Assembly (NCBI GenBank): GCA_023266935.1
Contig: JAHFOF010000003.1
Coordinates: 1 to 57,461, forward strand
Reading direction: 5' to 3'
From: a bacterium
Lineage (GTDB): Bacteria; Patescibacteriota; Minisyncoccia; Phycocordibacterales; Zambryskibacteraceae
DNA: 57,461 nt
Each line of letters begins with the position of its first letter. The first letter of the stretch is position 1. The position numbers and the translations under genes were made by a program. This document shows positions 4,097 through 33,327 of this stretch, piece after piece. The notes below the pieces were generated by a model. That model was not told the DNA's origin, did no database searches, and was given only the letters and a program-made list of their open reading frames with translations.

Positions 4097-4105
4097 TGGA
4101 GGTTG

Positions 4106-5811: not shown

Positions 5812-5815
5812 TTAG

Positions 5816-8615: not shown

Positions 8616-8645
8616 GCCCCCACAGTTAAATGCGGGGGTTTTGTT
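8616..8645. terminator. GC-rich hairpin terminator after rnpB (possibly bidirectional)
   Basis: GCCCCCAC-AGTTAAAT-GCGGGGG is followed by TTTTGTT on the plus strand. On the minus strand it sits directly after the stop of CDS 8644-9060 but with a weaker U-run. Confidence 0.55.
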
Positions 8646-9060
8646 ATTGTAGGTTAGAAGCCTCAATAATTTTGTTCGTACTTGGGCGAAAGAGGATGGC
8701 TTTCTTGGCCACAGAATAAATTATCACCTGGTCCCCCACTTCAGCATTCATAAAGAATGGTTGATACTTCACTTCTTCTAGATTCGTCACCGTTTTAATC
8801 ACCGGCTCTTCGTTCGTGGGTAAAATTATTTCTCCGCGTATTGCGTTTAAAATTTGCTCGGTCGTCGGAGCATTACTTTTAGTCTGATAGGCATTAAAAA
8901 TTTGTAACCCGAAAACAACCAGAAAATAAATGCTAATTAAAACAATAACCCAAATAAATATTTTTTTAAATGAAAATCTCCTTTTCTTTTTGGGAAAATT
9001 TTCTTCTCCAAAAGATTTTGGTCTAAGCACTAATGGTTGATTAAAATTTTGATTGTTCAT
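8644..9060 (-). CDS. small single-pass membrane protein, unknown function, translationally coupled to the giant ORF
   Basis: 138 aa with a basic N terminus (KKKRRFSFKK), one TM helix (IFIWVIVLISIYFLVVFGL) and an ~80-aa extracytoplasmic domain. Its ATG overlaps the giant ORF stop (TAATG at 9058-9062). Confidence 0.6.
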   Translation of the reverse strand: MNNQNFNQPLVLRPKSFGEENFPKKKRRFSFKKIFIWVIVLISIYFLVVFGLQIFNAYQTKSNAPTTEQILNAIRGEIILPTNEEPVIKTVTNLEEVKYQPFFMNAEVGDQVIIYSVAKKAILFRPSTNKIIEASNLQ

Positions 9061-12000
9061 TAGATTGTTGGGTTAGCTTGCCCTGAGTCGGTCGAAGTGG
9101 TCGTCGAAGCCGAAGTATCCACAGTGCCCGGTGTACTCGAAGATGTGTCTGTTGATGGTGTAGTGGTGCTTGTATCTACTGGAGGGGTTGGGGTGGTAGG
9201 AGTTGTATCCACAGGAACATTATAAACTGCAGCTCCCGGATAAGTCTGACAATCTCCTGCAGTAGTCACCGCTTGACCGTTCACCACCTTCATACAATAC
9301 GGTGCACCGTTCACTTGGTCATACACAGTGATGCCTGTTGGTTTCTCTTTCGTCCCTACAGATAGAGCATATGTGCTAAGGCTCTCTACAGCAAGTTGTT
9401 TAAAGTGAGTGACCCCATCTACTATAGACGCACCCATCGCAGTCAAAGTATCTGCGATGATGCTTGGTGAAGTAGAAGCAGTAGCCACAAATCCAGTAGA
9501 TGAAGCGAACATTTGTTCTAGTGTTGAGAGTCTTGTTTCAAGAGCGATAACTCGATCAGTAGTCGAAGCCATCGTAGTTGAAGCATCGTTGAACCAAGCC
9601 AACATGTCAGAGTTAGAAATGCTTGGTGTAGTTGATGCCTGACCACAAACATCTCCGACAGATACTTCTCCATTATCAGAAATGCAGAGGAACTTATCAC
9701 CCGCTTTTGTTTCTGGAAGTCCGAAGAAAGTGATCGCTCCATCCACGGTCAAAGCTGAATCTGCATTCGGAGTTGAAGTCCCAAATGCCACTTGTCCTTC
9801 GACAATCAATCCATTCTCTGGAGCAAGGAGGTTGAAATCCGAACCAATGGATACTCCTCCAGCCACTACGAGTTTATTGAGCGGAGTAGTGGTGCCCATG
9901 CCTATGCCCACGTTGCCTTTGTTCAAAAGATTTTCTAAATCTGTAACTCGCAAATCCAAATCGTTCCAAGCGTTTGCTAAAATCGGAGCGAAGTCCAAAT
10001 AGTTCACTTGCAAAAATCCATCTGCACCAGTAGTGACCAATTCTGGTACTACTGACTGAACGTCTTGAGCGATGAACCCGATGTGGTTAGCCATGGTCTC
10101 ATCATTCTTCCAACTAAAGTTGACTCCTCGAAGTCTGCGTAGAATTTCTGTTGAACTCGCGATGGTGCTAATGTTTGTTTTTAACCTCGCATCAGAGGTA
10201 CAAGTAAGGGCTGTGTTGGTTGGATTAATTGTACAAGTGCCACCACCTATAACACTAAAGCCTGCCACAGAACCGTTTACACTGCTTACATGAAGGGTAT
10301 AAAGCGGATTGTTTGTCCCAATACCCACTTGGGGGCTACCATCTACGCTTGTGCCTGTTGAATTAATAACCAAAGCTTGTTTCTGGTAGTAAAAAGCATT
10401 CGGATCCATCGTTTGAAGGATCAAGTTCTCAGAATATGGTCCAGGTCCTGCTCCATCAGTGTGATACCTGACTAGGAACGAGCTCGAGTCTATGGCCAAA
10501 AAATCAGAAAGTGAATTAAAGTCCGTTATGGTTGAACTGTTTGCATATACAGTTTGTTCGCTAGAAATACCGACCACACCAGAAGATGATACATTTATCA
10601 CTCTGTTTTTTGTCCCACTATTAAACAAAAGATGGGTACTATCTAAAGCACTTAACCTCCACGGATTAGTAGAATATCCTCCAATAGAACTAGTAGTCGT
10701 GGAAGTAACAGACAAGTTAGTACTACTTACCCCGACGTATGAAATTAATGCATTGTTGTTACTTGAGTAATCTGAAGCGATGAAGAGAGTGCCGGGCAAT
10801 GGAGAAGCGATAGCCAATTTTGTGCTTGTTGCCGTCGCATAATTTTCTAAACTACCAAGACTAATACTGCTACCATTTACTCCTCCGATGATAACTTTGC
10901 CTTGAGCTTGAGTAGGGTTACCGCTTGTCTCGTTATAAACCAAAGCAAACTGTGTAGTGGTGCCATTTATGGCAGTCATGGCCATGTCAGCCACATTTAT
11001 ATTTGAAGCTACTGTAACCGGATTGCCGAATGAATTAATAGTGGTTCCGGTATATTGAACTGTCCTTGCGGTCACTGATGTAGCGCTCCCCGAAGGCAAA
11101 CCATAGCTGACTACAAACTGTCCTGCTGAAGCAGCTGCTATTCCCACAACAGGAACAGCACTATATCCTCCAGCAAAACTAATAGAGCTACCGCACGAAG
11201 GAGTGATCACAGAAATAGTACACACAGCCACATCAACCCAATAAACACTAGCAATACTTTTAGTATTTATAAGAGCTACCGTGTTTGCATCGAGAACTGC
11301 GATAGCTGATGGAGACCAAGAGACTGTGCTTGTGGCTGCTACATAAACTCCAGATGGTCCGTACGACAAAGAAGACCCGCTTTTCTGACCCACCCTGACT
11401 TGGTAACCAGAGCCATTTTGAGCGGTAAACAAAATGTGTCGTGTGCTGTCTAACTTCGCAGACATGTTGCTCCAGACAGTTTGGTTACCGTATTGCATAC
11501 CCGGGAAGATAATCGAAGCAGTACTTGGATCAAACGTCTGATTCGCATATGTGGTATCAGCAGTCCTTACTTTAAAAATTTGATCAGTCGAAGTAAAACC
11601 GGCAAGGAATGATGTGTTGGTAAGTGGAGTTAAGCCGAGTATGGTTGATCCGGCAGATTGTTCTCCTCCAATTGAAACTAGTGTAGTAGAAGAAACACCG
11701 AGAATCCTAAAATTGGAGCCGTACCCGACAGCAATATTAGAACCATCGAGGAAAGCAGACGAAACTGTGGCGCTATAAACAGTAGAAAGTGATGCCACGG
11801 TTGAAGTTGCTACTGTAGAAGTGCCTGTAACCGTCACTAGCATTGCATCCAATGAAACATTGCTATTATGAACAAAGTTAATAAAAGAAGTATCAGAAAG
11901 AGGTTGCGCAGATCCTATATAAGAACTGTTGGCCGCGTTTGTTGCATATGGAGTACCACAAGTCAAAACTCCGCCAGAAAAGTTTACAATAACAACTGAT

Positions 12001-15000
12001 TCCCACGGTGCAGCAGAATAAAAGTGAATCGCAGCCCTAGTTGTTGTAGCTGAAAACAACATTATCCCAGGATTAGTAGCAGAATAACTTGGAACACTTC
12101 TAACCGCATTTTGAGTCCCAAGAGAAATGGTTGTCCCAGAAGTGGTTGAGAGTCTGACATCTATTCCTCCCGCGGTATAGTCAGTATAAGTCGCAAGGAA
12201 ACTTCCTCCGCCAACCGACTTCACATCAACTGTTACTGGTTGAGCAAATGTACCCATGGTAACTGGTGTGCCACAAGAAGTAACTGTCGTTGCATTATAG
12301 TTACAAACCACAGCCTTTACACCCCATGATGAGTAGTTGTAAACAACAATAATTCTTGTGGAGTCCAATACGTCAACAGCAAAGTTAGCATAAGTTCCCC
12401 CGTAGAAATTTGCATCCACCGTAGCCATAGAAAAGGCAGGATAAAACAGAACATTTGTCCCATCAGTTTTACCCATATAAATACTTCCTATGGTATATGA
12501 AAGTACGGTAGTTGAGCTTATGGCGATAGGAATCGCACCGCCGTTTGCAGAAACACCACTTGACCAACTTGGACTAAGGGCAAAAACATTTAAACTCGAT
12601 GGAGTGGTGCTGACTCCATAAAACCTCGAGTTCCCTGCTACATCCAAATCAAACAATGGTTGAGTAACTCCTATACCCACATTGCCATTCTGGGCAAAGG
12701 TGACTGTCTGCGTCCCTGCAGCATTCGCTTGGTTATTGAAAGCCAAGCTACCGCTGTTGTCTGCAGACAACGACCAAGTGGATGTCCCTATATTTTGTGT
12801 CCCAACCCAAGATTGATTCCAACGTTGAGCTGATGTGCCTAGATTATAAGTAAGGTTTGCATCAGGAATAATGTCTCGAGCAGTAGTAGTCCCTACAACA
12901 ACTAATTTTGTGTTTGGAGTAGTCGAACCGATGCCAACATTACCATCATCTCTAACTAACAATGCTGAAGTTCCATTTGAGTTTGCAACATTTAATCCAG
13001 TCGTAGCAGAAGTGGCTCCAGAGCTCTGGATAGATAATTTAGAAAGTGGAGATGACGTACCTATACCAACTCTTGCGAGCGAAAGGTCGATGTCGAGAGT
13101 ATCGTTTCCACCATTCGCTCCTGTAAAGTGCATAACCTTTCCACTTGTTGTTCGATCATTACTAAACAATTGAAGAAAGAAATCCTGGCCAACTAAACTG
13201 GCAGAAATCAATCTAAGAGATCCACCACTTCCTCCAGCTGAGTCGCTAAAGAATGCCGCTGGTATCCCTGTTGTTTGATAAACATCAAGCATTGCAAACG
13301 GTGTGGTTGTGCTTATACCAACCCTGCCTGTTGAGGTGATTCGCATTCCTTCTCCGACTGTCCCAGAACTGTTGCTGGTGCTGAATTGTAGATAACCAGA
13401 ATAGTTTCCATTTGTGCCGTTTTCTTTTCTTCCTGCAATAGTGGCGAAAGGATTCGCTGCATCAGTACCGTTTGTATTCCCTGAAAAATGAAGTTGAGAT
13501 CCTATATCTATTCCTTGAGAATCTGTTGATATCAAGGTCAATGCTGATGACGAATCCCCAACATTTATACCAGCAGAAGCTTTCGCAATCGTAAGTAAAG
13601 CTGATGGTGTCGTAGTACTTATTCCAACATTGCCACTTCCATCAATCGTCATCTTTGTAGCTGAGTTGATTTGGAAATAAAGAGGATTTGATCGTCTCGA
13701 ATCTATTTTATTGTTTGCTGTTGAGCCAGTAATAACCAAGTCTTGTATTCCTCCGGTTGCAATTTGCAAACCAGTTGAAGCAACAGAATCAAGAACGAGC
13801 TGACTTGCTGGTGTGGTCGTACCTATACCCAAATTCCCAGAGGCCAACATAGTAACTAGAGGAACAAATGTCTGATTATCAGCACTCGCGCTTGCAACAT
13901 TTCCAAACTGCATTCCTCCTGCGACATTAGAAAGAATAATCGATGCTTGAATACCGTTTGTTTTAAAAGTATTAATGTTGGTGCCTGCTGAACCGTTGAA
14001 AGCAAGATAAGGAGTTCCTGCAGAATAATAATATCCAAGAGTGCTTCCGTAGCCAGAAGCATTCGCATGGCCCCATTCGAAACTATTTGAATTGTTAGCT
14101 ATATTACCTCCTCGAGCAGAAATGATTGAATTAAATTGGCTTGTGACTCCATTCACACCAACAACGTCTAATTTGGCTACAGGTGCAACTGTCCCAATAC
14201 CCACGTTACCTGAATTAGTAATGATGAAATTAGTTGCAGTAGAAGAACCAACCACGAATTGATTTGAAGCGAGTCCTGCGGTTGGGTTCACTGCAAATGT
14301 GGCGAATGGAGTAGTAGAACCTATGCCAACATTGCCGCTACCTTGAATATACATAAGAGGTGCTGGTGTTGAACCACCGACAAAAGCAAATCCTCCACCT
14401 GTTGAATCTGAGCGAGTTTGAAAAATGAGCGTTTGCGCCGCTAGTCCTGAAAATACATTTGATGTTTTATAAATATAAGAATCTGCCGATGATGTGACAA
14501 AAGCGCTTGCAGTATAATTACCAAATTGTAATGTGTTGGCAACACCTGTGGTGTCGTTCAAATTGCCGTATGGACTAACAACTAAGTTTGACCCAATAAC
14601 CCTCCCCACAACTTCGAGTGGCGAGTGCGGACCCGTCGTCCCGATGCCAACATTTCCACCAAGTGGTTGTAGTGATAATGCATATGTTGACCCATCATTT
14701 GTTGCATGACGATGCTGTATCCATGCGGTGAACGGGCTATTCTGCATACTTCCAAAAACCAAATCCGTTCCTGAACCTGATTGCATGGAAAACATAGCCG
14801 CTGTCCCATGAGTCAAAGAAGGATCGCTGTATGATGTTGTGCCAACAAGTTGTAATTTTGAAGAAGGAACAGCGGCTCCTATTCCAACATTACCACCTGA
14901 TGTCACATTAAATAACACACTTGAATCATTGTTTATTTGGAAACTATCGGCTGAACTTTTGTTGATAATAGTTAAAGGTACACCTTGTGTAGAACCAGCA

Positions 15001-21000: not shown

Positions 21001-24000
21001 ATAACATTGCTTAAACTAAAGGTAATCGCCCCAACACCTACAGTTGTTCTGTGCAAAGAAAGCAATGGGGTTGAACCGTTGCCATTAACGTCCAAAGGAT
21101 AGGCAGGACTTGGAGTACCTATACCTAATCGTGCATTTGTGTTGTCCCAGAAAAACTTGTTGTTATTTTGAGCGAGGATTCCAGAGGTGCTGGCAAACAC
21201 CACTGAACCCAAAGTGAATGTTGTTGAAAGCTTCCCAGAAATATATTGGTTCGTCGTCGTCGCATTTGTACCAGTGGCATTCGTATAAGCAAGATTGGTT
21301 ATGTTGAAATTCGTACCAAAGAGATTGGTAGAGAAGAAGTTGGTGGTTGTAGCTGAAGTACCAGTCGCATTTGTAAATGCAAGCCATGGGAATGTGTTGC
21401 TGATAGTTGTTGATGTAGAAGTAAAGTAATCCGCTTGAACATCTTGATCGAATATTCCTCTACCGGCAACGCTGAGTGATGCATATGGTGAAGTGGTACC
21501 AATACCAACATTGCCTCCTACAATTCTCATTGCTTCTGCCACAGTGTCATTTGAACTGCCAGATACATTTGTATTAAATGCTAAATAGGTTTCAGTATTC
21601 ACTGCTGGATTTGTATAACCAGAAAGAATACGTGCTGTTCTCCCTGCACTAACTCTAAAGCTAATTTCATTTATATCTGTATTGGAAACTCCATTCAAAC
21701 GGATTTGTGAGCCACCTGATTTATAAATTTCCAATAATGTCGACGGGCTCGTTGTTCCGATTCCAACATTTCCACTTGCAGATAAAATGGTAAATTTTTC
21801 TGTGCCGTTTGGACGAATACCAAAATCTCCAGTGGCTCCATTTGTTACCAAACGATTATAATTTCCATTACCTTCAATTAAATCTATTCCTACAGAAGCT
21901 CCCGCATCATTTCTCTTAAATGTAGCGAGGGGGAATCCTGTCCCAGCCACAGACAACATAGTGCTTGGAGATGAGGTTCCGATTCCCACGTTCCCTCCAT
22001 TTATTGGTTGAAGAGTAAGGTCGCCTGTATTCGCAGATAATTCCAAATCACCTCTTCTTCCTGTCGTAACAAAACCACTACCTATTAGGGTGATATCAGC
22101 TTTCGCCACTCCGGCTTGTTTGAAATTAAAGAATCCATACGAGCTTGCTGTTGGGAAATCTATAGCGATATCTTTCGCATCACCATAAACATGAAGTAAC
22201 GATTGTGGAGTGGTTGTTCCAATGCCGACATTTCCATTGGTTCCAATGCGCATTCTCTCCGCCGTATTTGAACCATTGTAATTCCAAAACTGTATTGCTC
22301 GTGCCGTACCATTACCACCAGCAGTCAAAACTAAATCACCCGCATAACCAGCGAACAATTGAGTAGAACCTGCTTGGTTAGCTCCTGAGGTGGTGAACGC
22401 TGCAGAATAATGATCAATCCCCCCGTAGTTTCCATTTGTACCTGATTGTCCGATTAAAAGTTCTGTATAAGCACCGGTGTTTGAAGTGGCATTATAAAGA
22501 TTAATGGCCGTGTTTCCATTTTGGTCCTTTCTTAGATTAAGAATGTCGTCTGGGACCGCAGTGCCTATACCCAATCTATTGTTCCCATTGTCCCAGAAGA
22601 ATTGAGAATTATTTTGAGCAAGTATTCCAGAACTTGTGGCAAACACGACTGAGCCCGCAGTGAACGATGTCGAAAGTTTACCCGAAACATATGTATTCGT
22701 AGTTGTAGAATTTGTACCCGTCGCATTTACAAAAGTGAAATTCTGCAGAGTAGTAGAGCCAGAACCGAGAAGATTCGCAATAGTAGTTAGCCCAGAAGCA
22801 TCAACCTTTAACAAACTTGAAACTATGTTTGTGGAAGTGGTAGTAGAAACATTAAATATATCTATCTGAGAACCGAGTGCCCCAGCAACATCTAATAATG
22901 CAAGAGGTGTAGTGGTCCCTATCCCCACAACTCCATTGTCTATGATTGTTCTAGTATACAGACCTGTCCATCTCCTCCCAGTAACACCTAGACTACGAGC
23001 CAGATCTGAATCTGGATAAAAATTACTTTGAGATTGAACACTCGCACCATTCAAGAACAAAGCGGTTGATCCACCGCTTATCACCGGATAGCCTGTACCC
23101 GCACCGGTGTTCGAAGTATCACCAAGTGTTAAATGATAATTGCTCACTGGATTCACTAATATATCTATCCTATTAGTAGGAGTGATGGTGCCTCCTATAC
23201 CTATAAAGCCAGAATTGTTTATTAAAAAGTTAGTAGCAGTTGAAGAACCAATCACAAACTGATTCGAAGCATTTCCCGCTGTTGGATTCACTGCGAAGGT
23301 GGCAAATGGTGTAGTAGAAGCGATGCCCACATTCCCTGTCCCGAGAAAAGAAGCTACGGGCGTTCCAGAATATTGAATATCAAATCGTCTTGAGGCCACT
23401 CCACCAGTAGTAAAGTTTATAAGCGCTTGAGAAGTGACTGGGTCATAGTTAAGATCTACAAATCTTGAATTATCTCCAGAATGAGCGACTCGCACCCCAC
23501 CAATTGTCGCTGTATCTGCGGTCACAATAGACAATCTGTTTGCTGGGGTCGAAGTAGCTATTCCTACATTGCCATTCATATTCACATTAAAGAGAGGTAT
23601 ATTCGAGGTGTTTGTCACTCTAAAGACATCTGCAAGTTGTCCAGATTGTGCTCGAACATCGAGAGTCGGGACTGTGGTGGTTGAAGATTGATTTTGGATT
23701 AAGGTTGGTTGATTAAAATTAAATTTATCAAGGAGAGAGTCCCAAGCAATAACTGCGTTCGGAGTGACTAACCCACGGAAGAAAATAAGATTCATATTTT
23801 CTGTGTCCGAGGTAGCGTTATCTGTATTTATGGTCCAATCATTATTTGTGGTGCCACTAATGGCAACTGCAGAACCACTTATGGTGTTCACATTTAAAGT
23901 ATCGATGTACGCTGTTTTCCAATAAAGAGAAGCCGAGCCGATGTCTCTGGTAATGTTGGCATCAGGAACAAGATTAGAGTTGATTCGAGCCGTGACTGTG

Positions 24001-27000
24001 AGAGTATCATTTATACCCGTACCCACACTCAAACTTTTGGCCACGGTGACAGCACCAGCGAAGCTTGAGGTATTGTTGTTTGTAACAGTGAGATTTGAAA
24101 GAGAGGTTGTGCCGAGGTTTGAGTTATTGGAGAAAAGATTAGTACTAAATACATTAGAAGATGTGGCTTGAGTAATATTGGCCAATGAGCCAAAGATGTT
24201 TGCACTGAATAGATTGGTGGTGGTAGCAGACGTGCCAGTGGCTTTATTGAAGATTAAATTTGTAAAGTTAAAGTTTCCACCAAAAAGGTTTGTGGCATAA
24301 AAATTCGTGGTCGTAGCTGAAGTGCCTGTTGCATTTACATATACGAGGCTCTGTATGTTCCCAATGGTACTAAATGAATTTGTTGAAAATAGATTAGTAG
24401 TTGTAGCACTAGTACCAGTTGCGTTTATGTATGTCAGGTTTTGTGTATTAGAGATTGTGCTAAATAAATTAGGAGAGTAGAAATTGTTAGTTGAAGTAGC
24501 ATTAGTACTGGTGCCGTTACTGAATTGAAGAGTGGTGAAGTTTCCATTAGCTCCGAAGACATTCACACCATAGAGAGAAGTGGAGGTACCGTTAGTGAAG
24601 TTGGTGGTACCGAGGTTTGAGTTAGTGGAGAAGAGATTAGTGCTAAAGAAATTAGTTGAGGTTCCGTTAGTGGTTGTAGAGAAGTTAACAAATAGTTTTC
24701 CAATGGTAGAACTACCTATGACTTCGGTGTTAGCAAACAGGTTGGTGGTAGAAGCATTGTGTGAAGCGTAGAAATCGGTGGTGGTGGCTGCAACTGCGGT
24801 GAGGTTAGTGGTGTTTGAAATTGTGCTGAAGAGGTTGGTAGCAAACAAACTATTAGTTGAAGTGGCATTGGTAGAGGTGCCGTTGGTGTAGATTAGTGGA
24901 CCGAAGTTTCCATTAGCTCCGAAAACATTAACTCCGTAAATAGAAGTGGTGGTAGCAGCTCCGAGGTTAGAAACATTGGCAAAGAGATTTTGGGTGTAGA
25001 AGGAGTTGGTTGAAGTAGCATTAGTACTGGTGCCGTTACCGAATTGAAGAGTGGTGAAGTTTCCATTAGCTCCGAAGACATTCACACCATAGAGAGAAGT
25101 GGAGGTACCGTTAGTGAAGTTGGTGGTACCGAGGTTTGAGTTAGTGGAGAAGAGATTTTGAGTGAAGAAACTGTTTGTAGAGGTGGCGTTGGTCGAAGTA
25201 GAGTTCCCATTTATATTTAATCCTCCATTGACTGTTAACTGTTGTCCGACTAGAGAACCAGCCACACCAGCGAAATTTCCATAAAGAAGTGAATATGCTT
25301 TATCATTTGCTGTAGAAGTTTGATCAATGTTATTAACATAAAAAGAGTTCGAACCTGTTTCGTACATTCCAGAAGTGAATCCCAAACCAACGTTAGAACT
25401 ACCATGTACGTTGTTGTACAAACTATAATTTCCTACTCCGACGTTGTAGCTCGGGTTTGGAGAAAAACCAAGCGAACCCAAAGCATTGAGACCCAAGGCA
25501 ACGTTATGATCTCCTCTGTTGTTCTGCATGGTCGAGTATCCAAGAGCAACGTTGTAATTCCCAGAATTACTGGACAATGCGCTGTTACCAATAGCTGTGT
25601 TATAGAGGCCACCATATAAAAGGGTGTAATATCCAATACCCACGTTTCCATAATTATCCCCATTTCCAATGTTCCCCATTGAATTTGTACCAATAGCAAT
25701 GTTATTCCCTCTATTGCCTGAAGTAACCGCAGTCCCCAACGCATTATTACCAATAGCGATACTTGGCGCACCACTACCAGAATCATTAATCAAAGCATGA
25801 TAACCAATAGCAGTATTCCATGTATTATTTGTACCTCCTCCCAATCCAACAGTAACTGTGTGAATTAATGCATCTCCATTCACATCCAATTTTGCCCCAG
25901 GAGTTGTAGTCCCTATACCCACTGCTCCCATAAAGGTTGAGGTGGCGGTTGTTGAGGTCGCCGTGAAGTATGAAGAGAGGACGCTGTCTTCTATAATCGC
26001 TTTTCCTGTAACCGAGAGTGGTCTGTATGGAGAAGTGGTGCCTATACCGAAATTTCCGTTATAATCCAATGTGGCCATGTTGAATCCAGATGCCCCTCTA
26101 GAGAAAATCTGAAAGGCACTTTTGAAAGTTGAAGCATCGTGTTCTATTGTTTTGCCTACAAATCCAGCATATTCAAAAAAGTTACTGGCTCCTACTCCAG
26201 TAGTATTTGTTCTAAACGAAACTACACTCCCGTTGTTGTTCGTTGTATCCGGATTTTCAAAAGCGATGTTGGTGAAAGTGCCTGTGCTACTTGCAAAGAT
26301 ATGCAATTTTCTTTGGGGATTATTCGTGCCTATGCCTAAATTATTCGTAGAACTATTCCAAAAAAGTTCTGAATTATTTTGAGAAAGTAGCCCATTCGCA
26401 CCGATAAAAGGAACTGAACCTTGGGTAAGAGAAGTGTATAAATTACCGAGTATTGCGAGGTTTGTTGTGGTGGCATTCGTGGTGGTTGAATTAGTCAAAG
26501 CCAAAGAACCGTTACTGAGGGTCAAATTATCAAAATTGGCTGTATGAGCATAAAAATTTGTCGTGGTAGCAGCAGAGCCCGTGGCGTATCTAAAGGTAAA
26601 ATCTTGAAGAGTAGTTGAGCTGTTCACCAACAAATTTTGTAAATTAGCATTATTCCCAAAAATATTTGTTGAGAAGAAGTTGGTCGAAGTAGCGTTTGTG
26701 GTAGTCGAATCTCCTACTACGGATCCACTGAAAGTGATGTTACCGAAGGTGGCGTTGTTAGCAAAGAAGTTTGTAGTAGTAGCATTGGTAGAAGTTGAAT
26801 TTGTAGAAACTAAGTTCGTTGAATTTAAATTTGTTGTGGTGGCATCCGTGGCTGTCAATGCTCCAACAGAAATATCGTTTGAAATAATCGAATTTATAAC
26901 AGACAAAGTCGCATTAAAATTTTCAGCAAAGAAATTTGTAGTGGTAGCATTTTTGACTAAAATATCCGTCCCATAAATATTTTTCCCCGAAAGGTCTCCG

Positions 27001-28553
27001 CTCGCACTAAGATCGGTGAATGAACCGCCCTTGGCTATGATGCCACTGCCCACTTCGAGTCCCCCACGAACGTTTATATTTTTTCGCACAGTAAGGTTAC
27101 CCTGGGTGAGCAAATCACTTTTCATATTTACAATACTTTCAAAATATGCCGGACCAAGAACCCTTAGAGTTTGATTAAATTCAGCTTCACCAAAAACAGA
27201 GAGGTCTCCTCCAACATTTAAAGATGCGAGGAGTTTAGTCGCCCCCTTAACCAAAAGAGTTTTACCTACTTCAACATTTCCTTGAAGCTGTACATCTTCT
27301 GTAGTGACACTTCCATTTTTTGTCACAAACGCAAGAGTAAAATCAGTTGATGACGCTCCGCCAAAATATTCTGCGTTCAAATTTTTCACCAAAGTTTTCG
27401 AATCTACTACTATCGGTGCGGTTCCATCTTGGATATAAGAACGTAGTTGGCCTTCTGTTTCTATGTGACCCAAGATAGAAATATTACCTTCTTTGTTTAG
27501 AAGTAGAATTTCGTTCGCATGGGTACCTGGTCTAAAACCCAATACAGTATTCGCATCTTTTAGACCACTCTTTACATAATCAAACGATTTTTCAAACAAA
27601 CCGAAGACAACTGGTACAGGGAAAAGAGTAAAAGCGAGTATCCCTAATACTGCGATTCCGCCGAGGAATCTGCTCGAAAAAACCGTTCTAAAGGATTTAA
27701 AATAATTTCGTTCGGAACGAAAATTGGTCCCTCCACTTAGTTTTTTATCCAAAACCTTTTCAAGAGCTTTTTCTATAACTGTTGTATCTACAGCGGAGTT
27801 TGTACTAGAAATCGTTGATGCCGTAGTGAGAGTTTCAGGAATAGATTCAGTCTGTCCTGGTTTCTCTTTCTTGATTGAAAAAATATTTTTTATAAAACCC
27901 ACAAAAGCCAGCATCTGCGTTTTTATGCCTTCAGACAAAGAATCCAAAATTGATGGACGAATAATTTTTGTTTGATCTGATGATTTTCTTTGTTCAAATA
28001 CCGTGGGCTGATAAACAGATTCTTCTTTCTCTGATGCTGGAAACATTTCTTTCCATCGTCTTTTTAATCTTCCAAAAAAAGTATCAAGAGCGGTTTGTCT
28101 GATAATTTCCGGTTCAACAGTTACTTTTTTCGCTTCTTTTTCTGCTTGTAACTTTTCAAATTCATTCAGATATTCTTTGATATCTTCGTGATACGAACGA
28201 ATAGAATTAACTGGTAGAACAACACTTTGAGTAACACCAACTTTTTCTGAGACTTCTGGTGCCACCGCATTTTGCGGGGTCCCGCCAGAGGCGGTGATTT
28301 GTGGTTCGATCTGTGAAGCCACAGCATTAAAGTTTCCACTTTGAATTTGAGCACGCATCATCTGCCTCTTCATATAATCATCGAGGACGGCGAGTGTGGT
28401 GTACCAAGTGTTATCAATTTTTTTAGCCGAGAGTTTGCCCTTTCGAGCGAGGAGACTTAAATATTCAGAACTATACGGAGTGTGCACGGAAGCCTCAGAC
28501 ATCGAAAGCCACTTCTCGTCATTCGGCCTGTTGTTGTCAAGGTTTGGATTCAA
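9060..28553 (-). CDS. giant (6,497 aa) N-terminally membrane-anchored fibre/adhesin-like surface protein
   Basis: A single stop-free frame of 19,494 nt. The domain content read from the translation is listed in the sub-features. The start is TTG at 28553 (first start after an in-frame TAG ~54 nt upstream). The alternative is the ATG at codon 18 (28502). Confidence 0.9.
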   Translation of the reverse strand: MNPNLDNNRPNDEKWLSMSEASVHTPYSSEYLSLLARKGKLSAKKIDNTWYTTLAVLDDYMKRQMMRAQIQSGNFNAVASQIEPQITASGGTPQNAVAPEVSEKVGVTQSVVLPVNSIRSYHEDIKEYLNEFEKLQAEKEAKKVTVEPEIIRQTALDTFFGRLKRRWKEMFPASEKEESVYQPTVFEQRKSSDQTKIIRPSILDSLSEGIKTQMLAFVGFIKNIFSIKKEKPGQTESIPETLTTASTISSTNSAVDTTVIEKALEKVLDKKLSGGTNFRSERNYFKSFRTVFSSRFLGGIAVLGILAFTLFPVPVVFGLFEKSFDYVKSGLKDANTVLGFRPGTHANEILLLNKEGNISILGHIETEGQLRSYIQDGTAPIVVDSKTLVKNLNAEYFGGASSTDFTLAFVTKNGSVTTEDVQLQGNVEVGKTLLVKGATKLLASLNVGGDLSVFGEAEFNQTLRVLGPAYFESIVNMKSDLLTQGNLTVRKNINVRGGLEVGSGIIAKGGSFTDLSASGDLSGKNIYGTDILVKNATTTNFFAENFNATLSVINSIISNDISVGALTATDATTTNLNSTNLVSTNSTSTNATTTNFFANNATFGNITFSGSVVGDSTTTNATSTNFFSTNIFGNNANLQNLLVNSSTTLQDFTFRYATGSAATTTNFYAHTANFDNLTLSNGSLALTNSTTTNATTTNLAILGNLYTSLTQGSVPFIGANGLLSQNNSELFWNSSTNNLGIGTNNPQRKLHIFASSTGTFTNIAFENPDTTNNNGSVVSFRTNTTGVGASNFFEYAGFVGKTIEHDASTFKSAFQIFSRGASGFNMATLDYNGNFGIGTTSPYRPLSVTGKAIIEDSVLSSYFTATSTTATSTFMGAVGIGTTTPGAKLDVNGDALIHTVTVGLGGGTNNTWNTAIGYHALINDSGSGAPSIAIGNNALGTAVTSGNRGNNIAIGTNSMGNIGNGDNYGNVGIGYYTLLYGGLYNTAIGNSALSSNSGNYNVALGYSTMQNNRGDHNVALGLNALGSLGFSPNPSYNVGVGNYSLYNNVHGSSNVGLGFTSGMYETGSNSFYVNNIDQTSTANDKAYSLLYGNFAGVAGSLVGQQLTVNGGLNINGNSTSTNATSTNSFFTQNLFSTNSNLGTTNFTNGTSTSLYGVNVFGANGNFTTLQFGNGTSTNATSTNSFYTQNLFANVSNLGAATTTSIYGVNVFGANGNFGPLIYTNGTSTNATSTNSLFATNLFSTISNTTNLTAVAATTTDFYASHNASTTNLFANTEVIGSSTIGKLFVNFSTTTNGTSTNFFSTNLFSTNSNLGTTNFTNGTSTSLYGVNVFGANGNFTTLQFSNGTSTNATSTNNFYSPNLFSTISNTQNLTYINATGTSATTTNLFSTNSFSTIGNIQSLVYVNATGTSATTTNFYATNLFGGNFNFTNLIFNKATGTSATTTNLFSANIFGSLANITQATSSNVFSTNLFSNNSNLGTTSLSNLTVTNNNTSSFAGAVTVAKSLSVGTGINDTLTVTARINSNLVPDANITRDIGSASLYWKTAYIDTLNVNTISGSAVAISGTTNNDWTINTDNATSDTENMNLIFFRGLVTPNAVIAWDSLLDKFNFNQPTLIQNQSSTTTVPTLDVRAQSGQLADVFRVTNTSNIPLFNVNMNGNVGIATSTPANRLSIVTADTATIGGVRVAHSGDNSRFVDLNYDPVTSQALINFTTGGVASRRFDIQYSGTPVASFLGTGNVGIASTTPFATFAVNPTAGNASNQFVIGSSTATNFLINNSGFIGIGGTITPTNRIDILVNPVSNYHLTLGDTSNTGAGTGYPVISGGSTALFLNGASVQSQSNFYPDSDLARSLGVTGRRWTGLYTRTIIDNGVVGIGTTTPLALLDVAGALGSQIDIFNVSTTTSTNIVSSLLKVDASGLTTIANLLGSGSTTLQNFTFVNATGTNSTTTNTYVSGKLSTSFTAGSVVFATSSGILAQNNSQFFWDNGNNRLGIGTAVPDDILNLRKDQNGNTAINLYNATSNTGAYTELLIGQSGTNGNYGGIDHYSAAFTTSGANQAGSTQLFAGYAGDLVLTAGGNGTARAIQFWNYNGSNTAERMRIGTNGNVGIGTTTPQSLLHVYGDAKDIAIDFPTASSYGFFNFKQAGVAKADITLIGSGFVTTGRRGDLELSANTGDLTLQPINGGNVGIGTSSPSTMLSVAGTGFPLATFKRNDAGASVGIDLIEGNGNYNRLVTNGATGDFGIRPNGTEKFTILSASGNVGIGTTSPSTLLEIYKSGGSQIRLNGVSNTDINEISFRVSAGRTARILSGYTNPAVNTETYLAFNTNVSGSSNDTVAEAMRIVGGNVGIGTTSPYASLSVAGRGIFDQDVQADYFTSTSTTISNTFPWLAFTNATGTSATTTNFFSTNLFGTNFNITNLAYTNATGTNATTTNQYISGKLSTTFTLGSVVFASTSGILAQNNNKFFWDNTNARLGIGTPSPAYPLDVNGNGSTPLLSLHRTTVGVGAITFSLSNVMGGSVGGDLAIDGTVASQGFIFRPRNSSNASVTGLGIDRNGNVGVGTTSPNYIGTTGRALTVSTQTVGDPTAVELVGQTGTQDFAFSRIDAVNGLGTQQVPSSRISFQRGSSGNDSGTIAFSTVTTNGGSITERMRIDNNGNVGIGTTTPASLNGFSQVLSLGGTAPSITLNSTNGGTVWEMGNDGSGRWRLLRGTSSVLTADTSGNVGIGTTSPASKLQVAKDVAIGAVAGGISGANLTQFSVTGSTDGAQRISFGYDTTNNYGIIAASDSSAWRDLYLQPNVSSGIPNVTIKAAGNVGLGTTNPSTLLHVGSTSPSDIASTNYYRSGFIAGDLEVDGTIYGTNYLALGSTTLQNFTFVNATGTNATSSTLYVSGNSMLAATGGRVGVGTNAPASLFSVSNNLQVDSTGRIGIGAAPATYALYTAGVNNSAFTQGIDLTNFRVNPANGGVAAFNTVNSYVNPPSGGTAVSAAGLDIIDLAVTNVAGTLTNLYGIKVNALSAKGASATVTNQYSALFALPTNGSNNKIGVLIGTAPAGPITSSLYVSSGISYFGGNVGIGTTTPATKLDVAGASPTINVLDVGTSYAITRYRASNNTTNEAYFGVEGSGAASLITGGGSLPSAALISRQGAYPIQFATNNVARMTIDSNGRVGIATTTPGTDTVGSFLSLTGNISQYNTASPQYVTLLATNFSSSRGIYTLESHAYDGSGVEKILTQIGAGQDTASTGYLRFGTQDGSSLAERMRITSTGNVGIGTSSPYASLSVAGRGIFDQDVRADYFTSTSTTISNTFPWLAFTNATGTNSTTTNFAITRLTLGSVPFVGTGGAIIQDNANFFFDDTNNRLGIATNAPNATLAVNGATNINGILSLFGAGLLASNKATITHNDQNLTVTTTGGTGHIILSPTGNVGINSTLPTAKLTVVGSTYSEPPGGIASSTVAVFANNGAANGTSSISILSRSSAISSINFGTELGERSGYIDYYRSAKSPYIATTMDFGTGNISRMVIDGNGNVGIGTTTPTAKLEVYNGASRFWHNGTAEYTDLTSNNEINHYTSGGVGSTLYIQYSSNANTNIGKSALLVQGNNGNVGVGTTSPSSKLDVFGQIRSSNTTGNNAIYSAYIGGVNEWTFGQRGSNSAFVFNNGGNFAGTDVVTILTNGSVGVGTTSPAAKLDVLAASNANGFKLTNSSLSGGSSGQPGYIFYNVTNTATPTNSDLRISEQQPNSGTIRMVLSGGNVGIASTTPYARLSVAGVGATTGVTFQTTNNSDVPNFTILDSGNIWFGNTVVNPSSGFGDTQRGMGYNNSNGHFEVSANNAAPGEFNRFGGTGDLLTFRYAGTTAGGISSDANSLELYATSTLIFGSNGTTERMRITPTGRVGIGTTSPQSKLEVSSSGASESSIRITSDSGQYRRLLFIDGAASPTKNNYEIAEQEVDNGLFIGPSASVGGTTFDTAKGLTVISSGNVGVGQPAPVSKLHVGATATARTQTNAVLIADNNSDTLGIAGSSAPSINFYTNALTQRLSNIQSVVQGTNGGQLLFQTKTDGGADVSERMRIDGNGLVGINTQTAVRVLQVNATTTASVAFNAANLNSWATMAVRAQVGVRNGATGIVFHTDTNSTASPNSGAGIAAIDTQSGSWGGVAELAFMTAASNISTERLRITSAGSVGIGTSTPSGTLHILGANGAVPTATTGYTPQLRLESSATAGVGVGPVMMFGGQTNNATTPYNFAAIQGVKSSATAGNYSGDLLFYTQNSGGAAALTEQMRITAAGNVGIGTTTPGTLFGGHAETLSIFGRGLTTNDGNVQMYLGGFDSGTYGKFGTLNNVPLRIGTNANDRMTIDTSGNVGIGTTTPSSVLSIYGLSAAAPSSNNGSIGDSSIFKIHSNAGTTLSVGMLNASPYTTWIQQKDSNANGVYYPIALNPLGGNVGIGTTSPVGILAVANSSNTSVGQYLSLEGNSTSNNGLFIYDKTGRSGPVAGTLNASSRTATAYIHITADGDGLIINKTNAGSTQGVPLTIINKSSADSFQINNDSSVLFNVTSGGNVGIGAAVPSSKLQLVGTTSYSDPSLTHGTAAMFSMQSGSGTDLVFGSMQNSPFTAWIQHRHATNDGSTYALSLQPLGGNVGIGTTGPHSPLEVVGRVIGSNLVVSPYGNLNDTTGVANTLQFGNYTASAFVTSSADSYIYKTSNVFSGLAAQTLIFQTRSDSTGGGFAFVGGSTPAPLMYIQGSGNVGIGSTTPFATFAVNPTAGLASNQFVVGSSTATNFIITNSGNVGIGTVAPVAKLDVVGVNGVTSQFNSIISARGGNIANNSNSFEWGHANASGYGSTLGYYYSAGTPYLAFNGSAGTNINTFKTNGIQASIILSNVAGGMQFGNVASASADNQTFVPLVTMLASGNLGIGTTTPASQLVLDSVASTGLQIATGGIQDLVITGSTANNKIDSRRSNPLYFQINSATKMTIDGSGNVGISTTTPSALLTIAKASAGINVGDSSSALTLISTDSQGIDIGSQLHFSGNTNGTDAANPFATIAGRKENGTNGNYSGYLQFSTSNSSGTVGEGMRITSTGRVGISTTTPFAMLDVYQTTGIPAAFFSDSAGGSGGSLRLISASLVGQDFFLQLFSNDRTTSGKVMHFTGANGGNDTLDIDLSLARVGIGTSSPLSKLSIQSSGATSATTGLNVANSNGTSALLVRDDGNVGIGSTTPNTKLVVVGTTTARDIIPDANLTYNLGTSAQRWNQSWVGTQNIGTSTWSLSADNSGSLAFNNQANAAGTQTVTFAQNGNVGIGVTQPLFDLDVAGNSRFYGVSTTPSSLNVFALSPSWSSGVSANGGAIPIAISSTTVLSYTIGSIYMGKTDGTNVLFYPAFSMATVDANFYGGTYANFAVDVLDSTRIIVVYNYSSWGVKAVVCNYNATTVTSCGTPVTMGTFAQPVTVDVKSVGGGSFLATYTDYTAGGIDVRLSTTSGTTISLGTQNAVRSVPSYSATNPGIMLFSATTTRAAIHFYSAAPWESVVIVNFSGGVLTCGTPYATNAANSSYIGSAQPLSDTSFINFVHNSNVSLDAMLVTVTGTSTVATSTVASLSTVYSATVSSAFLDGSNIAVGYGSNFRILGVSSTTLVSIGGEQSAGSTILGLTPLTNTSFLAGFTSTDQIFKVRTADTTYANQTFDPSTASIIFPGMQYGNQTVWSNMSAKLDSTRHILFTAQNGSGYQVRVGQKSGSSLSYGPSGVYVAATSTVSWSPSAIAVLDANTVALINTKSIASVYWVDVAVCTISVITPSCGSSISFAGGYSAVPVVGIAAASAGQFVVSYGLPSGSATSVTARTVQYTGTTINSFGNPVTVASNINVADMAMTAINGTTTQFALVYNETSGNPTQAQGKVIIGGVNGSSISLGSLENYATATSTKLAIASPLPGTLFIASDYSSNNNALISYVGVSSTNLSVTSTTTSSIGGYSTNPWRLSALDSTHLLFNSGTKNRVINVSSSGVVGISSEQTVYANSSTITDFNSLSDFLAIDSSSFLVRYHTDGAGPGPYSENLILQTMDPNAFYYQKQALVINSTGTSVDGSPQVGIGTNNPLYTLHVSSVNGSVAGFSVIGGGTCTINPTNTALTCTSDARLKTNISTIASSTEILRRLRGVNFSWKNDETMANHIGFIAQDVQSVVPELVTTGADGFLQVNYLDFAPILANAWNDLDLRVTDLENLLNKGNVGIGMGTTTPLNKLVVAGGVSIGSDFNLLAPENGLIVEGQVAFGTSTPNADSALTVDGAITFFGLPETKAGDKFLCISDNGEVSVGDVCGQASTTPSISNSDMLAWFNDASTTMASTTDRVIALETRLSTLEQMFASSTGFVATASTSPSIIADTLTAMGASIVDGVTHFKQLAVESLSTYALSVGTKEKPTGITVYDQVNGAPYCMKVVNGQAVTTAGDCQTYPGAAVYNVPVDTTPTTPTPPVDTSTTTPSTDTSSSTPGTVDTSASTTTSTDSGQANPTI
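9063..9218 (-). other. Pro/Thr/Ser-rich C-terminal tail of the giant protein
   Basis: VPVDTTPTTPTPPVDTSTTTPSTDTSSSTPGTVDTSASTTTSTDSGQANPTI*. Confidence 0.85.
9927..10196 (-). other. Peptidase S74 / intramolecular chaperone auto-processing domain (aa 6120-~6209)
   Basis: TSDARLKTNISTIASSTEILRRLRGVNFSWKNDETMANHIGFIAQDVQSVVPELVTTGADGFLQVNYLDFAPILANAWNDLDLRVTDLE matches the SDxRxK...GFIAQE...P family pattern of endosialidase and tail-fibre C-terminal chaperones. The Ser codon is at 10194-10196. Confidence 0.8.
10340..12640 (-). other. non-fibrous Cys-containing repeat domain (aa ~5305-6072), candidate distal head
   Basis: About a dozen ~55-60-aa units of the form hydrophobic strand + LDSTR-like turn + ...G(T/S)x(I/L)(S/T)xG... 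Examples: VDVLDSTRIIVVYNY..VVCNYNATTVTSCGTPV, AKLDSTRHILFTAQ..GQKSGSSLSYGPSG, SALDSTHLLFNSG..VSSSGVVGISSEQ. Confidence 0.5.
24491..24638 (-). repeat. 148-bp direct repeat, copy A
   Basis: Identical to 25010-25157 except for one position (T at 24521 versus C at 25040). The offset is 519 bp, i.e. 173 codons, in frame. Confidence 0.95.
25010..25157 (-). repeat. 148-bp direct repeat, copy B
   Basis: See copy A. Both encode ..FSTNSNLGTTNFTNGTSTSLYGVNVFGANGNFTTLQF(G/S)NGTSTNATSTN.. Confidence 0.95.
25330..25820 (-). repeat. YadA-head (Hep_Hag)-like short repeats, aa ~913-1075
   Basis: Nine units of N-[TVI]-[AG]-[ILV]-G spaced ~14-20 aa apart: NTAIGYHAL, SIAIGNNALG, NIAIGTNSMG, NVGIGYYTL, NTAIGNSALS, NVALGYSTMQ, NVALGLNALG, NVGVGNYSLY, NVGLGFTSGMY. 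Confidence 0.5.
26350..26960 (-). repeat. S/T/N-rich low-complexity tract 1 (aa ~532-735)
   Basis: Degenerate units such as NATTTNFFAENFNAT, NSTSTNATTTNFFANNATFGN, TTTNATSTNFFSTNIFGNNANLQN. Confidence 0.8.
27594..27668 (-). other. single transmembrane helix of the giant protein, aa 296-320
   Basis: FLGGIAVLGILAFTLFPVPVVFGLF is preceded by a K/R-rich segment (RSERNYFKSFRTVFSSR). By the positive-inside rule the N terminus is cytoplasmic. Confidence 0.75.
28368..28511 (-). other. N-terminal winged-HTH (HTH_17/MerR-excisionase-like) domain of the giant protein, aa ~15-62
   Basis: WLSMSEASVHTPYSSEYLSLLARKGKLSAKKIDNTWYTTLAVLDDYM follows the same pattern as the stand-alone HTH proteins at 29353-29601 and 41739-41984. 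Confidence 0.6.
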
Positions 28554-28850: not shown

Positions 28851-29291
28851 CTAGAAACCTACGTATTTTAATGATATCAAATTTAGTGCTCCAATTACCT
28901 TTCCTTTGATACTCCATTTATCTATTGGTCCTAATTCTCTTGAATCTATACTGACATTTCTATTGTCTCCCATCACATAATACTCTTTGGGATCCAATAC
29001 TATAGCTGAAGTAGTCGTACCATTTAACCTTTCTCCAGGTAAACCAATTACTCGCTTTAGAATTTTGTTTGGATATATGCGAGGTATGACTACTACTATG
29101 TCTCCATGGGCAGGTTCAGTCCACCAATAAGCTACTTTGTTTATAAAAACAAACTCTCCCGAATGAATGGTTGGTTCCATAGAATCTCCACTTACTACGA
29201 AGCCTTCTATTACAAAAATACGAAGAAAGAGCGCGCAAATAAAGACTACAATAACTATTGATAGAATTTTTTGTTTGGTGGTTGCTTGCAT
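28851..29291 (-). CDS. lepB: signal peptidase I
   Basis: 146 aa with an N-terminal TM helix, GDSMEPTI (catalytic Ser box), KRVIGLPGE (Lys box) and GDNRNVSIDSRELGPI. Confidence 0.85.
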   Translation of the reverse strand: MQATTKQKILSIVIVVFICALFLRIFVIEGFVVSGDSMEPTIHSGEFVFINKVAYWWTEPAHGDIVVVIPRIYPNKILKRVIGLPGERLNGTTTSAIVLDPKEYYVMGDNRNVSIDSRELGPIDKWSIKGKVIGALNLISLKYVGF

Positions 29292-33322: not shown

Positions 33323-33327
33323 ATGGA

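Follow-up and report, generated by a model that had tools for sequence, protein, structure and literature searches.

The stretch of DNA analysed here (the window) comprises 57,461 nucleotides of contig JAHFOF010000003.1, from a bacterium of the Zambryskibacteraceae (Patescibacteriota; assembly GCA_023266935.1). It contains one giant open reading frame (ORF), which probably encodes an exceptionally long member of a Patescibacteria-wide group of membrane-tethered, trimeric adhesion fibres that resemble phage tail fibres and mature through a Peptidase_S74 (S74) domain. Little is known about the means by which the very diverse and mostly uncultured Patescibacteria other than the Saccharibacteria locate their partners and hold on to them, and work so far has centred on type IV pili. 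We describe a widespread, syntenic and nearly always mis-assembled family of Paceibacteria proteins that is linked to the mosaic adhesive trimer (MAT) fibres of Bdellovibrio and to the receptor-binding fibres of phages; this link makes the family a concrete candidate, open to testing, for the apparatus with which a major uncultured lineage attaches. In overall plan, the protein has a tail-fibre architecture mounted on a different, membrane-integral base with a cytoplasmic helix-turn-helix (HTH) domain. The MAT/tail-fibre stalk and the S74 domain were already known; what is new here, by the literature searched, is the Patescibacteria-specific base and the family that it defines. Tip domains that can be swapped would also offer a handle for predicting partner specificity.

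The giant ORF (9060..28553, minus strand, as are all fibre features given below) spans 6,497 codons from a TTG, or 6,480 from an ATG at codon 18, and ends in a TAA stop. Public gene calls start at the ATG and give a product of 6,480 amino acids (aa). The TTG start is plausible because the residues that it adds (NPNLDNN...) align with the N termini of homologues (MNPNFNNK or MNPDFQKP). There are zero internal stops over the 19.5 kb of the translated frame, and the probability of 6,497 stop-free codons, given the ORF's own base composition, is ~1e-172. An exact look-up of the 6,480-aa product returned no record, and an exhaustive search of representative proteins found a variant of 6,480 aa with three substitutions (D2003N, N4664S and G4787V) and the same neighbouring genes (P0065; ENA assembly ERZ27297709, 57,713-bp contig). 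The product of a 76,319-bp NCBI contig (P0215) is identical to that of the window from codon 18. One might still suspect an assembly artefact, either a repeat-driven chimera or a collapse, as in about 60 of 80 related loci the gene is cut off by the end of a contig and such genes are evidently hard to assemble. However, two database records carry the 6,480-aa call, and the internal DNA repeats are diverged (60-88% identity): families of 41-64-nt motifs are 60-80% identical, the longest repeats are merely 88% (211 nt) and 83% (181 nt) identical, and a tandem-repeat scan found one trivial tandem repeat only. Repeat collapse is therefore unlikely. Moreover, two long fibres from other records, P0066 (6,621 aa) and P0067 (4,075 aa), are collinear with the distal ~1,350-1,600 aa of the window fibre at 33-37% identity. 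We regard the giant ORF as a real gene and an artefactual origin as very improbable. An earlier note on this DNA, made from the sequence alone, had described a single 19.5-kb ORF of 6,497 aa and had raised stops and collapsed or chimeric repeats as threats to it; the frame proved uninterrupted, the repeats are too diverged for a ready collapse, and the near-identical P0065 comes from an independent assembly.

The evidence that places this protein among tail-fibre-like proteins lies in its stalk and in its S74 domain. The main stalk (aa ~1650-5310; 12624..23606) consists of 42 modules, each ending in (ERMRI...)GNVGIGTxxPxxxLxV. A census with the pattern [VLIF]G[IVL][GANS]x2-5P counted 47 capping-loop motifs in the protein, as had been estimated beforehand, with 42 of these within aa 1600-5320 and a median spacing of 86 aa; ERMRI precedes many of the 47. 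The likeness to phage tail fibres proposed in the earlier note is borne out by matches of the stalk to two PHROG families annotated as tail fiber protein (phrog_9942, E 1.5e-71; phrog_18345, E 2.7e-69), with 5-10 matching stretches per 2,500-aa tile, and by a tblastn search with a 1,000-aa stalk tile, which found tail fibres of cyanophages and pelagiphages at 25-37% identity. A phmmer search of PDB sequences with aa 2001-5299 had as its sole matches 8OND, 8OML and 8OJN/8ONB/8ONC, the last three titled 'cell wall surface anchor family protein'. The best of these comparisons, with 8OND (the Bdellovibrio MAT protein Bd2133), gave E-values of 1.9e-7 and 4.3e-5. The segment SERMRIDTSGNLGLGTAAPTSALHV of Bd2133 aligns with modules of the fibre, and the common motif, SERMRID..GN(L/V)G(L/I)GTxxPxxxLHV, is the MAT capping loop. 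By homology, then, the main stalk is a beta-helix with capping loops of the MAT/phage tail-fibre type, and because the Bd2133 motif aligns with the modules found here, the stalk and S74 belong to a structural kind that has already been described.

The proximal stalk (aa ~541-1500; 24054..26933) is different in composition, combining NxAIG-type repeats and three early capping-loop motifs with tracts (TTTNxxSTN) in which Ser, Thr and Asn abound; at the DNA level its repeat families D3, D4 and D7 are 61-88% identical. This region had no match in Pfam, Hep_Hag included, or in PDB. The YadA-head-like repeats that had been read into aa ~900-1075 were not recovered either, with no Pfam match even at E<=10 and no PDB sequence match. 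The Ser/Thr/Asn tracts are present, however, in P0066 and in a further fibre, P0070, both of which have a signal peptide in place of the base described below. NCBIfam gave no match on any tile of the giant protein, and Pfam gave none for the Ser/Thr/Asn tracts, the NxAIG repeats, the propeller region or the extension that follows S74.

At the distal end, the Peptidase_S74 intramolecular chaperone/autoprotease domain (aa 6120-6174; 10032..10196) scores 60-63 bits against a Pfam cut-off of 22. Its motif, S6120-D-A-R-L-K6125, is intact (S-D-x-R-x-K), and the Ser and Lys are in register with those of phage S16 gp37 (6F45). Directly before the putative cleavage site lies the last beta-helix turn (aa 6060-6119; 10197..10376), which has a capping-loop motif and a Cys6107/Cys6118 pair; its sequence, PQVGIGTNNPLYTLHV...GGGTCTINPTNTALTCT, is invariant in alignment A2. 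The S74 domain is followed by an extension (aa 6175-6497; 9063..10031) comprising a helix, an extra GNVGIG motif, two Cys pairs, a conserved domain of ~170 aa and a Pro/Thr/Ser tail (aa ~6447-6497). This extension is 53% identical to P0071 over 185 aa and is conserved in P0066 and P0067 too. A homologue search with the C-terminal 1,208 aa as the query found nothing, the Pro/Thr tail having probably swamped the word index. The S74 domain and the Pro/Thr tail had both been recognised in the earlier note, as had a Cys-containing repeat domain; all 11 Cys residues of the protein are indeed within aa 5417-6435.

Five of these Cys residues lie in the distal domain (aa ~5340-6050; 10404..12536), which is a predicted tandem beta-propeller and a candidate binding tip. 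An AlphaFold2 model of this domain, built from a 5-sequence alignment, is all-beta with two lobes and has a mean predicted local distance difference test (pLDDT) value of 66. A Foldseek search with the model matched tandem WD40-type propellers (Utp21, Elp2 and DDB1) with a best E-value of 6e-11 and a probability of 1.0, at a TM-score of only ~0.25; phage proteins that contain propellers were matched too, including one with a short tail fibre annotation. We hold with moderate confidence that the distal domain is a tandem beta-propeller and a plausible ligand-binding tip. Among 1.84 billion proteins, only about 5 representative homologues of aa 5300-6060 were found, while ~31,000 representative proteins match the S74 region.

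The base of the fibre is made up of four parts. At the N terminus there is a putative cytoplasmic domain (aa ~15-72; 28338..28511) resembling HTH_17, the excisionase/MerR-type winged helix. In the window protein the match to this profile is sub-threshold (E 0.048, 14.4 bits against a cut-off of 27) and covers the full length of the profile at aa 15-64; orthologues score higher (E 2e-5 to 6e-4, 20-25 bits), and six homologues of the N-terminal module carry a precomputed PF12728 match. In an AlphaFold2 model built from a 62-sequence alignment and starting at codon 18, the first ~50 residues (ORF aa ~18-67) have a pLDDT of 94-97 and a topology (helix, helix, beta-hairpin, helix) that is consistent with a winged HTH. 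The motif PYSxEYLSLLARKxK...W is invariant across the family alignments. A charged and mostly predicted helical linker follows (aa ~73-295; 27669..28337). Between aa 71 and 295, 27% of residues are K, R, D or E, and both sequence and length of the linker are variable in alignments A1 and A3, with low pLDDT. The single transmembrane (TM) helix (aa ~296-320; 27594..27668) is the sole strongly hydrophobic segment of the protein and its top hydropathy window (Kyte-Doolittle 2.36). Its N-terminal flank, with five K/R and one D/E, is more positively charged than its C-terminal flank, with four K/R and two D/E, which suggests an N-in orientation and a role as a signal anchor. These three parts, an N-terminal domain of HTH type, a charged linker of ~230 aa and one TM helix, stand as first read. 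The fourth part, and the signature of the family, is a juxtamembrane extracellular domain with a short beta-helix (aa ~327-540; 26934..27575), which is 50-69% identical to homologues in many Paceibacteria lineages, has dozens of invariant columns in alignments A1 and A3, and weakly matches a Bactofilin-type beta-helix (E 0.019). A profile of the N-terminal module found nothing significant among PDB sequences, nor did a Foldseek search with the whole N-terminal model, whose confidence is low outside the HTH, probably because the region is trimeric.

A protein search with aa 1-450 as the query found 64 proteins, nearly all from metagenome-assembled genomes (MAGs) of Patescibacteria/Parcubacteria; the exceptions were one Omnitrophica-labelled record and a few metagenome sequences. 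These proteins have the HTH and the TM-plus-juxtamembrane block in common. All 64 are <=777 aa and most named records are flagged 'partial', with names that include 'helix-turn-helix domain-containing protein' and 'YadA domain-containing structural protein'. The 70-aa HTH alone, used as a protein query, found 3 short proteins only. A locus scan of the GTDB species representatives gave nothing with a single N-terminal sequence; with alignment A1 it found 407 loci, all in Patescibacteria. We derived ORF statistics for 80 of these, which include Zambryski-, Yanofsky-, Nealson-, Taylor-, Kaiser-, Wolfe- and Tagabacteria. About 60 of the 80 ORFs run off the 3' end of their contig, so that these genes evidently break assemblies. 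Those that are complete measure from 678 to 3,537 aa, and a further two exceed 3,700 aa as a lower bound; the window copy, at 6,497 aa and with 47 motifs, is the longest seen with an HTH-TM base. The HTH motif is kept in 68 of 75 related ORFs scanned and at least one capping-loop module in 57 of the 75. The window protein carries the whole family signature of alignments A1 and A3: the PYSxEYLSLLARKxK HTH, one TM helix, and a domain of the form GTHANE...GHIETEGQLRS...APIVVDS...NLNAEY...FTLAFVTKNG. Judged from these alignments, what defines the family, which extends across the Patescibacteria, is its set of HTH, linker, TM helix and juxtamembrane domain. Truncated annotations of the 'hypothetical' or 'YadA domain' type in hundreds of MAGs are fragments of such fibres, for which the complete 6,497-aa example provides a rare full-length reference. 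That the organism belongs to the candidate phyla radiation (CPR), as had been surmised, agrees with relatives that are nearly all Patescibacteria. Many related records are titled 'uncultured Candidatus Saccharibacteria', though their neighbouring genes resemble those of Paceibacteria.

The genomic setting of the family is conserved as well. A lepB gene lies on the same strand within 1.5 kb upstream in 30 of the 69 loci with enough upstream sequence, and L015, L017, L033 and L037 share a longer order (secA ... obg, gatB, lepB, fibre gene, TPR protein, murJ, lepA). Peptidase_S74 is found near the C terminus of the syntenic orthologues in L017 (1,660 aa), L033 (1,963 aa) and L037 (1,954 aa), and is absent from nine other complete family members. 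Because these syntenic orthologues also end in S74, the combination of an HTH-TM base with an S74 end is, on sequence evidence from independent assemblies, a recurring and vertically maintained architecture, in which stalk length and tip type vary. The earlier note had suggested a search for the arrangement of lepB, giant ORF and small TM protein in related genomes. The lepB part of this arrangement is common, as described above; homologues of the small TM protein (138 aa; 8644..9060, minus strand) were found directly 3' of the fibre gene in L003 and L033 only and were absent from 11 other complete loci with enough downstream sequence. The same note could not assign the combination of parts to any described family. 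For the stalk and S74 this has changed, as they match the Bdellovibrio MAT fibres (8OND, 8OJN and 8OML), whereas in the literature searched we found no paper describing the HTH-TM-juxtamembrane family, or MAT-like fibres in Patescibacteria.

From these observations we propose the following assembly and function of the fibre, for which the N-in topology, Sec export, trimer state and autocleavage are inferred from the sequence. The HTH_17-like domain and the charged linker would stay in the cytoplasm, the TM helix would act as an N-in signal anchor, and Sec would export the remaining ~6,170 residues, with the conserved juxtamembrane domain seating the base in the envelope. The C-terminal S74 domain would nucleate trimerisation, as in phage tail fibres and Bdellovibrio MAT fibres, and the ~47 capping-loop beta-helix modules would fold into one intertwined stalk. 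The S74 domain would cut itself off at Ser6120 through the Ser6120/Lys6125 dyad. After cleavage, three disulfide-containing tandem beta-propeller units near the distal end would serve as the ligand-binding tip. Scaling from the dimensions of Bd3182 (~550 Å for ~760 mature residues) and of the Bd2133 tip (150 Å for 370 residues), as reported by Caulton et al. (2024; PMC10769870), one would expect a span of roughly 0.2-0.4 µm for about 5,000 stalk residues. Fibres on the micrometre scale, as envisaged in the earlier note, are probably too long an estimate. A span of 0.2-0.4 µm is comparable to the diameter of a CPR cell. Such a fibre would let a host-dependent cell of ~0.2-0.3 µm reach and hold a partner cell or surface, and differences among lineages in how long the stalk is and which tip it carries would tune its reach and its specificity. 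By analogy with the fibres to which it is related, adhesion to a partner cell or surface, and host attachment with it, is a reasonable expectation.

Several points weigh against this proposal. The fibre family is known here from sequences and models, and the case for trimerisation and autocleavage is one of homology. The propeller model of the tip is only moderate, in its mean pLDDT as in its TM-score to the matched structures. The post-S74 extension of ~320 aa is conserved and would be shed by cleavage, which is odd for a discarded piece. The signal peptide and N-terminal domain that define MAT fibres are absent; there is a soluble HTH instead, and the first hydrophobic segment is at aa 296-320. 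An invariant cytoplasmic HTH is unnecessary for a passive anchor, and for this reason we keep a signalling role, or a RodZ-like docking in the cytoplasm, under consideration. We know of no partner organism for this lineage. Finally, the near-universal presence of the gene beside housekeeping genes would also fit a general role in the envelope.

The last of these points corresponds to a different view of the fibre, in which it is no specific adhesin and instead a general structural element of the envelope, such as a coat, a spacer or a brush of the S-layer type. The family occurs widely and its setting, with secA, dsbB, lepB, murJ and a polysaccharide cluster, is one of housekeeping and envelope biogenesis, and a composition rich in Ser, Thr and Asn would suit glycosylation. 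However, length varies between lineages, from 678 to >3,800 aa and up to 6,497 aa here, and tips are swapped among members, with and without S74. Variation in length and swapping of tips are hallmarks of receptor-binding fibres and not of lattice proteins. Together with the homology to tail fibres and MAT adhesins, this makes a purely structural role unlikely. A phage-derived gene, whether a prophage tail fibre, part of a tailocin or a recent lateral import into the chromosome, would account for the PHROG tail-fibre matches, for the 25-37% identity to cyanophage and pelagiphage fibres and for the S74 domain, which is typical of phage fibres. Yet the 57-kb window has no further virion genes and none for an integrase or for lysis, orthologues occupy the same lepB-adjoining locus in many genera, the HTH-TM base is cellular and was found in Patescibacteria only in these searches, and the GC content of the gene is close to that of its flanks. 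We consider a phage origin scarcely credible and, given the lack of virion genes in the window and the synteny of the locus across genera, rejected a prophage. The setting of this gene, chromosomal and not that of a prophage, recurs in other Patescibacteria genomes.

The invariant HTH raises the question of whether the protein could be a contact-sensing receptor, instead of or besides an adhesin. Engagement of the tip, or tension on it, would be relayed across the membrane, for example by a cleavage near the TM helix that frees the HTH_17 domain to bind DNA and switch on an attachment or feeding programme. Few parts of the family are as well conserved as the HTH, which is kept with its invariant motif in 68 of 75 loci; it is folded confidently by AlphaFold2 as a winged HTH, and HTH_17 members, with their excisionase/MerR-type fold, are typically DNA-binding. 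A signal peptidase gene is the conserved upstream neighbour, and a PrsW-family intramembrane protease is encoded in the window (99-833, plus strand). PrsW-type proteases cleave membrane-tethered regulators in other bacteria, a fact that bears only on this speculative signalling reading. Against it, no cleavage site, target operator or regulated genes were identified; the HTH could bind a protein instead, as the RodZ HTH binds MreB; the adjacency of lepB may be mere operon history; PrsW is ~28 kb away; and S74 is on the wrong side of the membrane for an HTH release of the MYRF type. We view a sensory function as quite unlikely, and give the same low credence to a two-way device, in which a ~0.3 µm tail-fibre-like tether is wired to an invariant cytoplasmic DNA-binding domain and contact of the tip with a partner cell directly elicits a response in transcription or in the chromosome, for instance when proteolysis sets the HTH free. 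Such a device, if it existed, would be a type of contact sensor not known from bacteria and the main organelle by which Paceibacteria recognise their hosts. A tethered adhesion fibre is the reading that we retain.

The genes around the fibre gene fit the housekeeping setting that had been noted from the sequence. Immediately upstream is a conserved neighbour, a lepB-like signal peptidase I gene (28851..29291, minus strand; Peptidase_S26, E 1.9e-30), and on the downstream side lies a bacterial class A RNase P RNA (8295-8615, plus strand; Rfam 97.5 bits, E 3e-30). The score of this RNA is just below the Rfam gathering score of 100, such that it was seen in an E-value search only and missed by the default scan; scores below the threshold may be typical of the reduced RNase P RNAs of CPR bacteria. 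The start of the 138-aa single-TM protein, which has a weak DUF7248 match, overlaps the stop of the giant ORF (TAATG). This overlap suggests translational coupling, and the small protein is a possible partner of the fibre. Further downstream is a gene for a 779-aa protein (5816-8155, minus strand) with C-terminal tetratricopeptide (TPR) repeats and an N-terminal 580 aa without a Pfam match; L015, L017, L033 and L037 also have it downstream of their fibre gene, and it might act on the fibre by, for example, glycosylating or assembling it. The other window genes include lepA and murJ on the downstream side and gatB, obg and a MYG1-family gene on the lepB side. The conserved upstream cluster with lepB also contains dsbB, an ORF for a thioredoxin-like protein of 124 aa, and secA (32789-33702 and 33728-36256, minus strand). 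Machinery for export, cleavage and disulfide formation (secA, lepB and dsbB) thereby adjoins the gene of a giant exported protein that has Cys only in its distal ~1,000 residues. DsbB and the thioredoxin-like protein could support disulfides in the tip, although this evidence is circumstantial.

A stand-alone MerR/HTH_17-type protein of 82 aa (29353-29601, plus strand; MerR E 9e-10, HTH_17 E 5e-7) is encoded between lepB and gatB, by a gene that converges on the gatB end. The same protein is called in the independent ENA contig, and its HTH is of the same class as that at the fibre N terminus. A cluster for the biosynthesis and export of a surface polysaccharide occupies 36609-56822. It encodes a Wzy_C (O-antigen-ligase-like) plus TPR protein, GDP-mannose 4,6-dehydratase, epimerases, an ABC-2/Wzt exporter, methyltransferases and, by a marginal match (E 8.8e-6), a GT11-like protein; its GC content (0.32-0.39) is below that of the fibre gene. 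The PrsW gene at the far end of the window stands beside an Hsp20 gene (849-1295, plus strand).

Among known systems, RodZ has the same topology as the window protein, with an N-terminal cytoplasmic HTH, one TM helix and the remainder outside. In RodZ, an XRE-type HTH binds MreB and the periplasmic domain is small, and we found no sequence relation between RodZ-type proteins and the window protein. MYRF likewise combines a DNA-binding-type domain, a TM helix and Peptidase_S74 in one polypeptide. MYRF has its S74 on the cytoplasmic side, after the DNA-binding domain and before the TM helix, and a transcription factor is set free when S74 cleaves. In the window protein, by contrast, the order is HTH (15-72), TM helix (296-320) and S74 (6120-6174), so that S74 is ~5,800 residues past the TM helix and outside; a MYRF-like release of the HTH by S74 was rejected because S74 would act on the opposite side of the membrane. 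MyRF does share the MAT capping-loop motif (Caulton et al. 2024; PMC10769870). The trimeric autotransporter adhesins, such as YadA, resemble the fibre proposed here in being long, repetitive and trimeric surface adhesins. However, YadA is anchored by a C-terminal outer-membrane barrel and the window fibre by an N-terminal TM helix. Searches for Hep_Hag, stalk and YadA_anchor gave no Pfam match, whether over the whole protein (E<=0.01) or over aa 880-1100 (E<=10), and no PDB match. As the C terminus consists of S74 and a Pro/Thr tail, we rejected membership of this class; the trimeric-adhesin parts postulated in the earlier note have neither profile nor sequence support.

Phage tail fibres and tailspikes that end in an intramolecular chaperone (K1F endosialidase, T5 pb1, S16 gp37, the members of PHROG 9942 and 18345, and tail fibres of cyanophages and pelagiphages) are also close. 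Their stalk modules are homologous to those of the window protein, the Ser/Lys dyad of S74 is common to both, and so is the polarity, with attachment through the proximal N terminus and binding through the distal C terminus. The suggestion that this polarity is combined with a membrane anchor in the cell itself agrees with the TM helix at aa ~296-320 and the C-terminal S74. The differences are that the window fibre is held in the cell membrane and not in a baseplate, that its gene is chromosomal and syntenic with housekeeping genes, with no virion genes nearby, and that the fibre is several-fold longer and has ~320 conserved residues after S74.

The MAT fibres are among the closest described systems. 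Caulton et al. (2024; PMC10769870) described 21 such fibres of about 1,000 aa each in Bdellovibrio bacteriovorus. Each has a signal peptide, a conserved beta-rich N-terminal domain of ~130 aa and a meandering trimeric beta-helix with the capping-loop consensus V-G-G/N-pi-x-x-P-x-x-x-L. The tips are either S74 with SDxxxK, in 13 of the 21, or swapped-in adhesive domains, and autocleavage was shown for Bd3182. The fibres are found on the surface of the predator and are implicated in the recognition and handling of prey. The supplementary data of the same study list MAT fibres in Halobacteriovorax, Micavibrio, Uabimicrobium, Omnitrophica and the FCB group, with no Patescibacteria entry. Like the MAT fibres (Bd2133 and Bd3182; 8OND, 8OJN and 8OML), the window protein is a tail-fibre-like fibre encoded by the cell, with a stalk that is similar in sequence (E 1.9e-7) and has the ERMRI..GNVGIGTxxPxxxL capping loop, a C-terminal S74 with SDxxxK, a conserved base, and tips that vary and can be swapped within its family. 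It differs in size (6,497 aa and 47 modules against ~1,000 aa); in its base, where a cytoplasmic HTH, linker, TM helix and juxtamembrane domain replace the Sec signal peptide and N-domain; in its cell, a monoderm-like Patescibacterium as opposed to a diderm predator; and in its tip, a predicted tandem propeller that is missing from the tips described for MAT fibres.

The Paceibacterota also have giant fibres of the signal-peptide type. P0066 (6,621 aa) and P0070 (3,567 aa; cluster name 'tail fiber domain-containing protein') are from the same phylum as the window protein and have the same Ser/Thr/Asn tracts and capping-loop modules. In place of the HTH, TM helix and juxtamembrane domain, both have a cleavable-looking signal peptide and a beta-rich INYQGKLT... 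domain. A comparison of the juxtamembrane profile with the N-domain of P0070 by hhalign showed no relation (probability 0.1). The P0067 record begins inside stalk sequence, and its true N terminus is not covered. At the distal end, P0070 resembles the window protein in the S74/extension region and in parts of the stalk only, while P0066 and P0067 have the whole cassette of distal propeller, S74 and extension at 33-37% identity. A common distal cassette on different bases is, as far as sequence comparison can tell, the mosaic pattern expected of MAT-like fibres.

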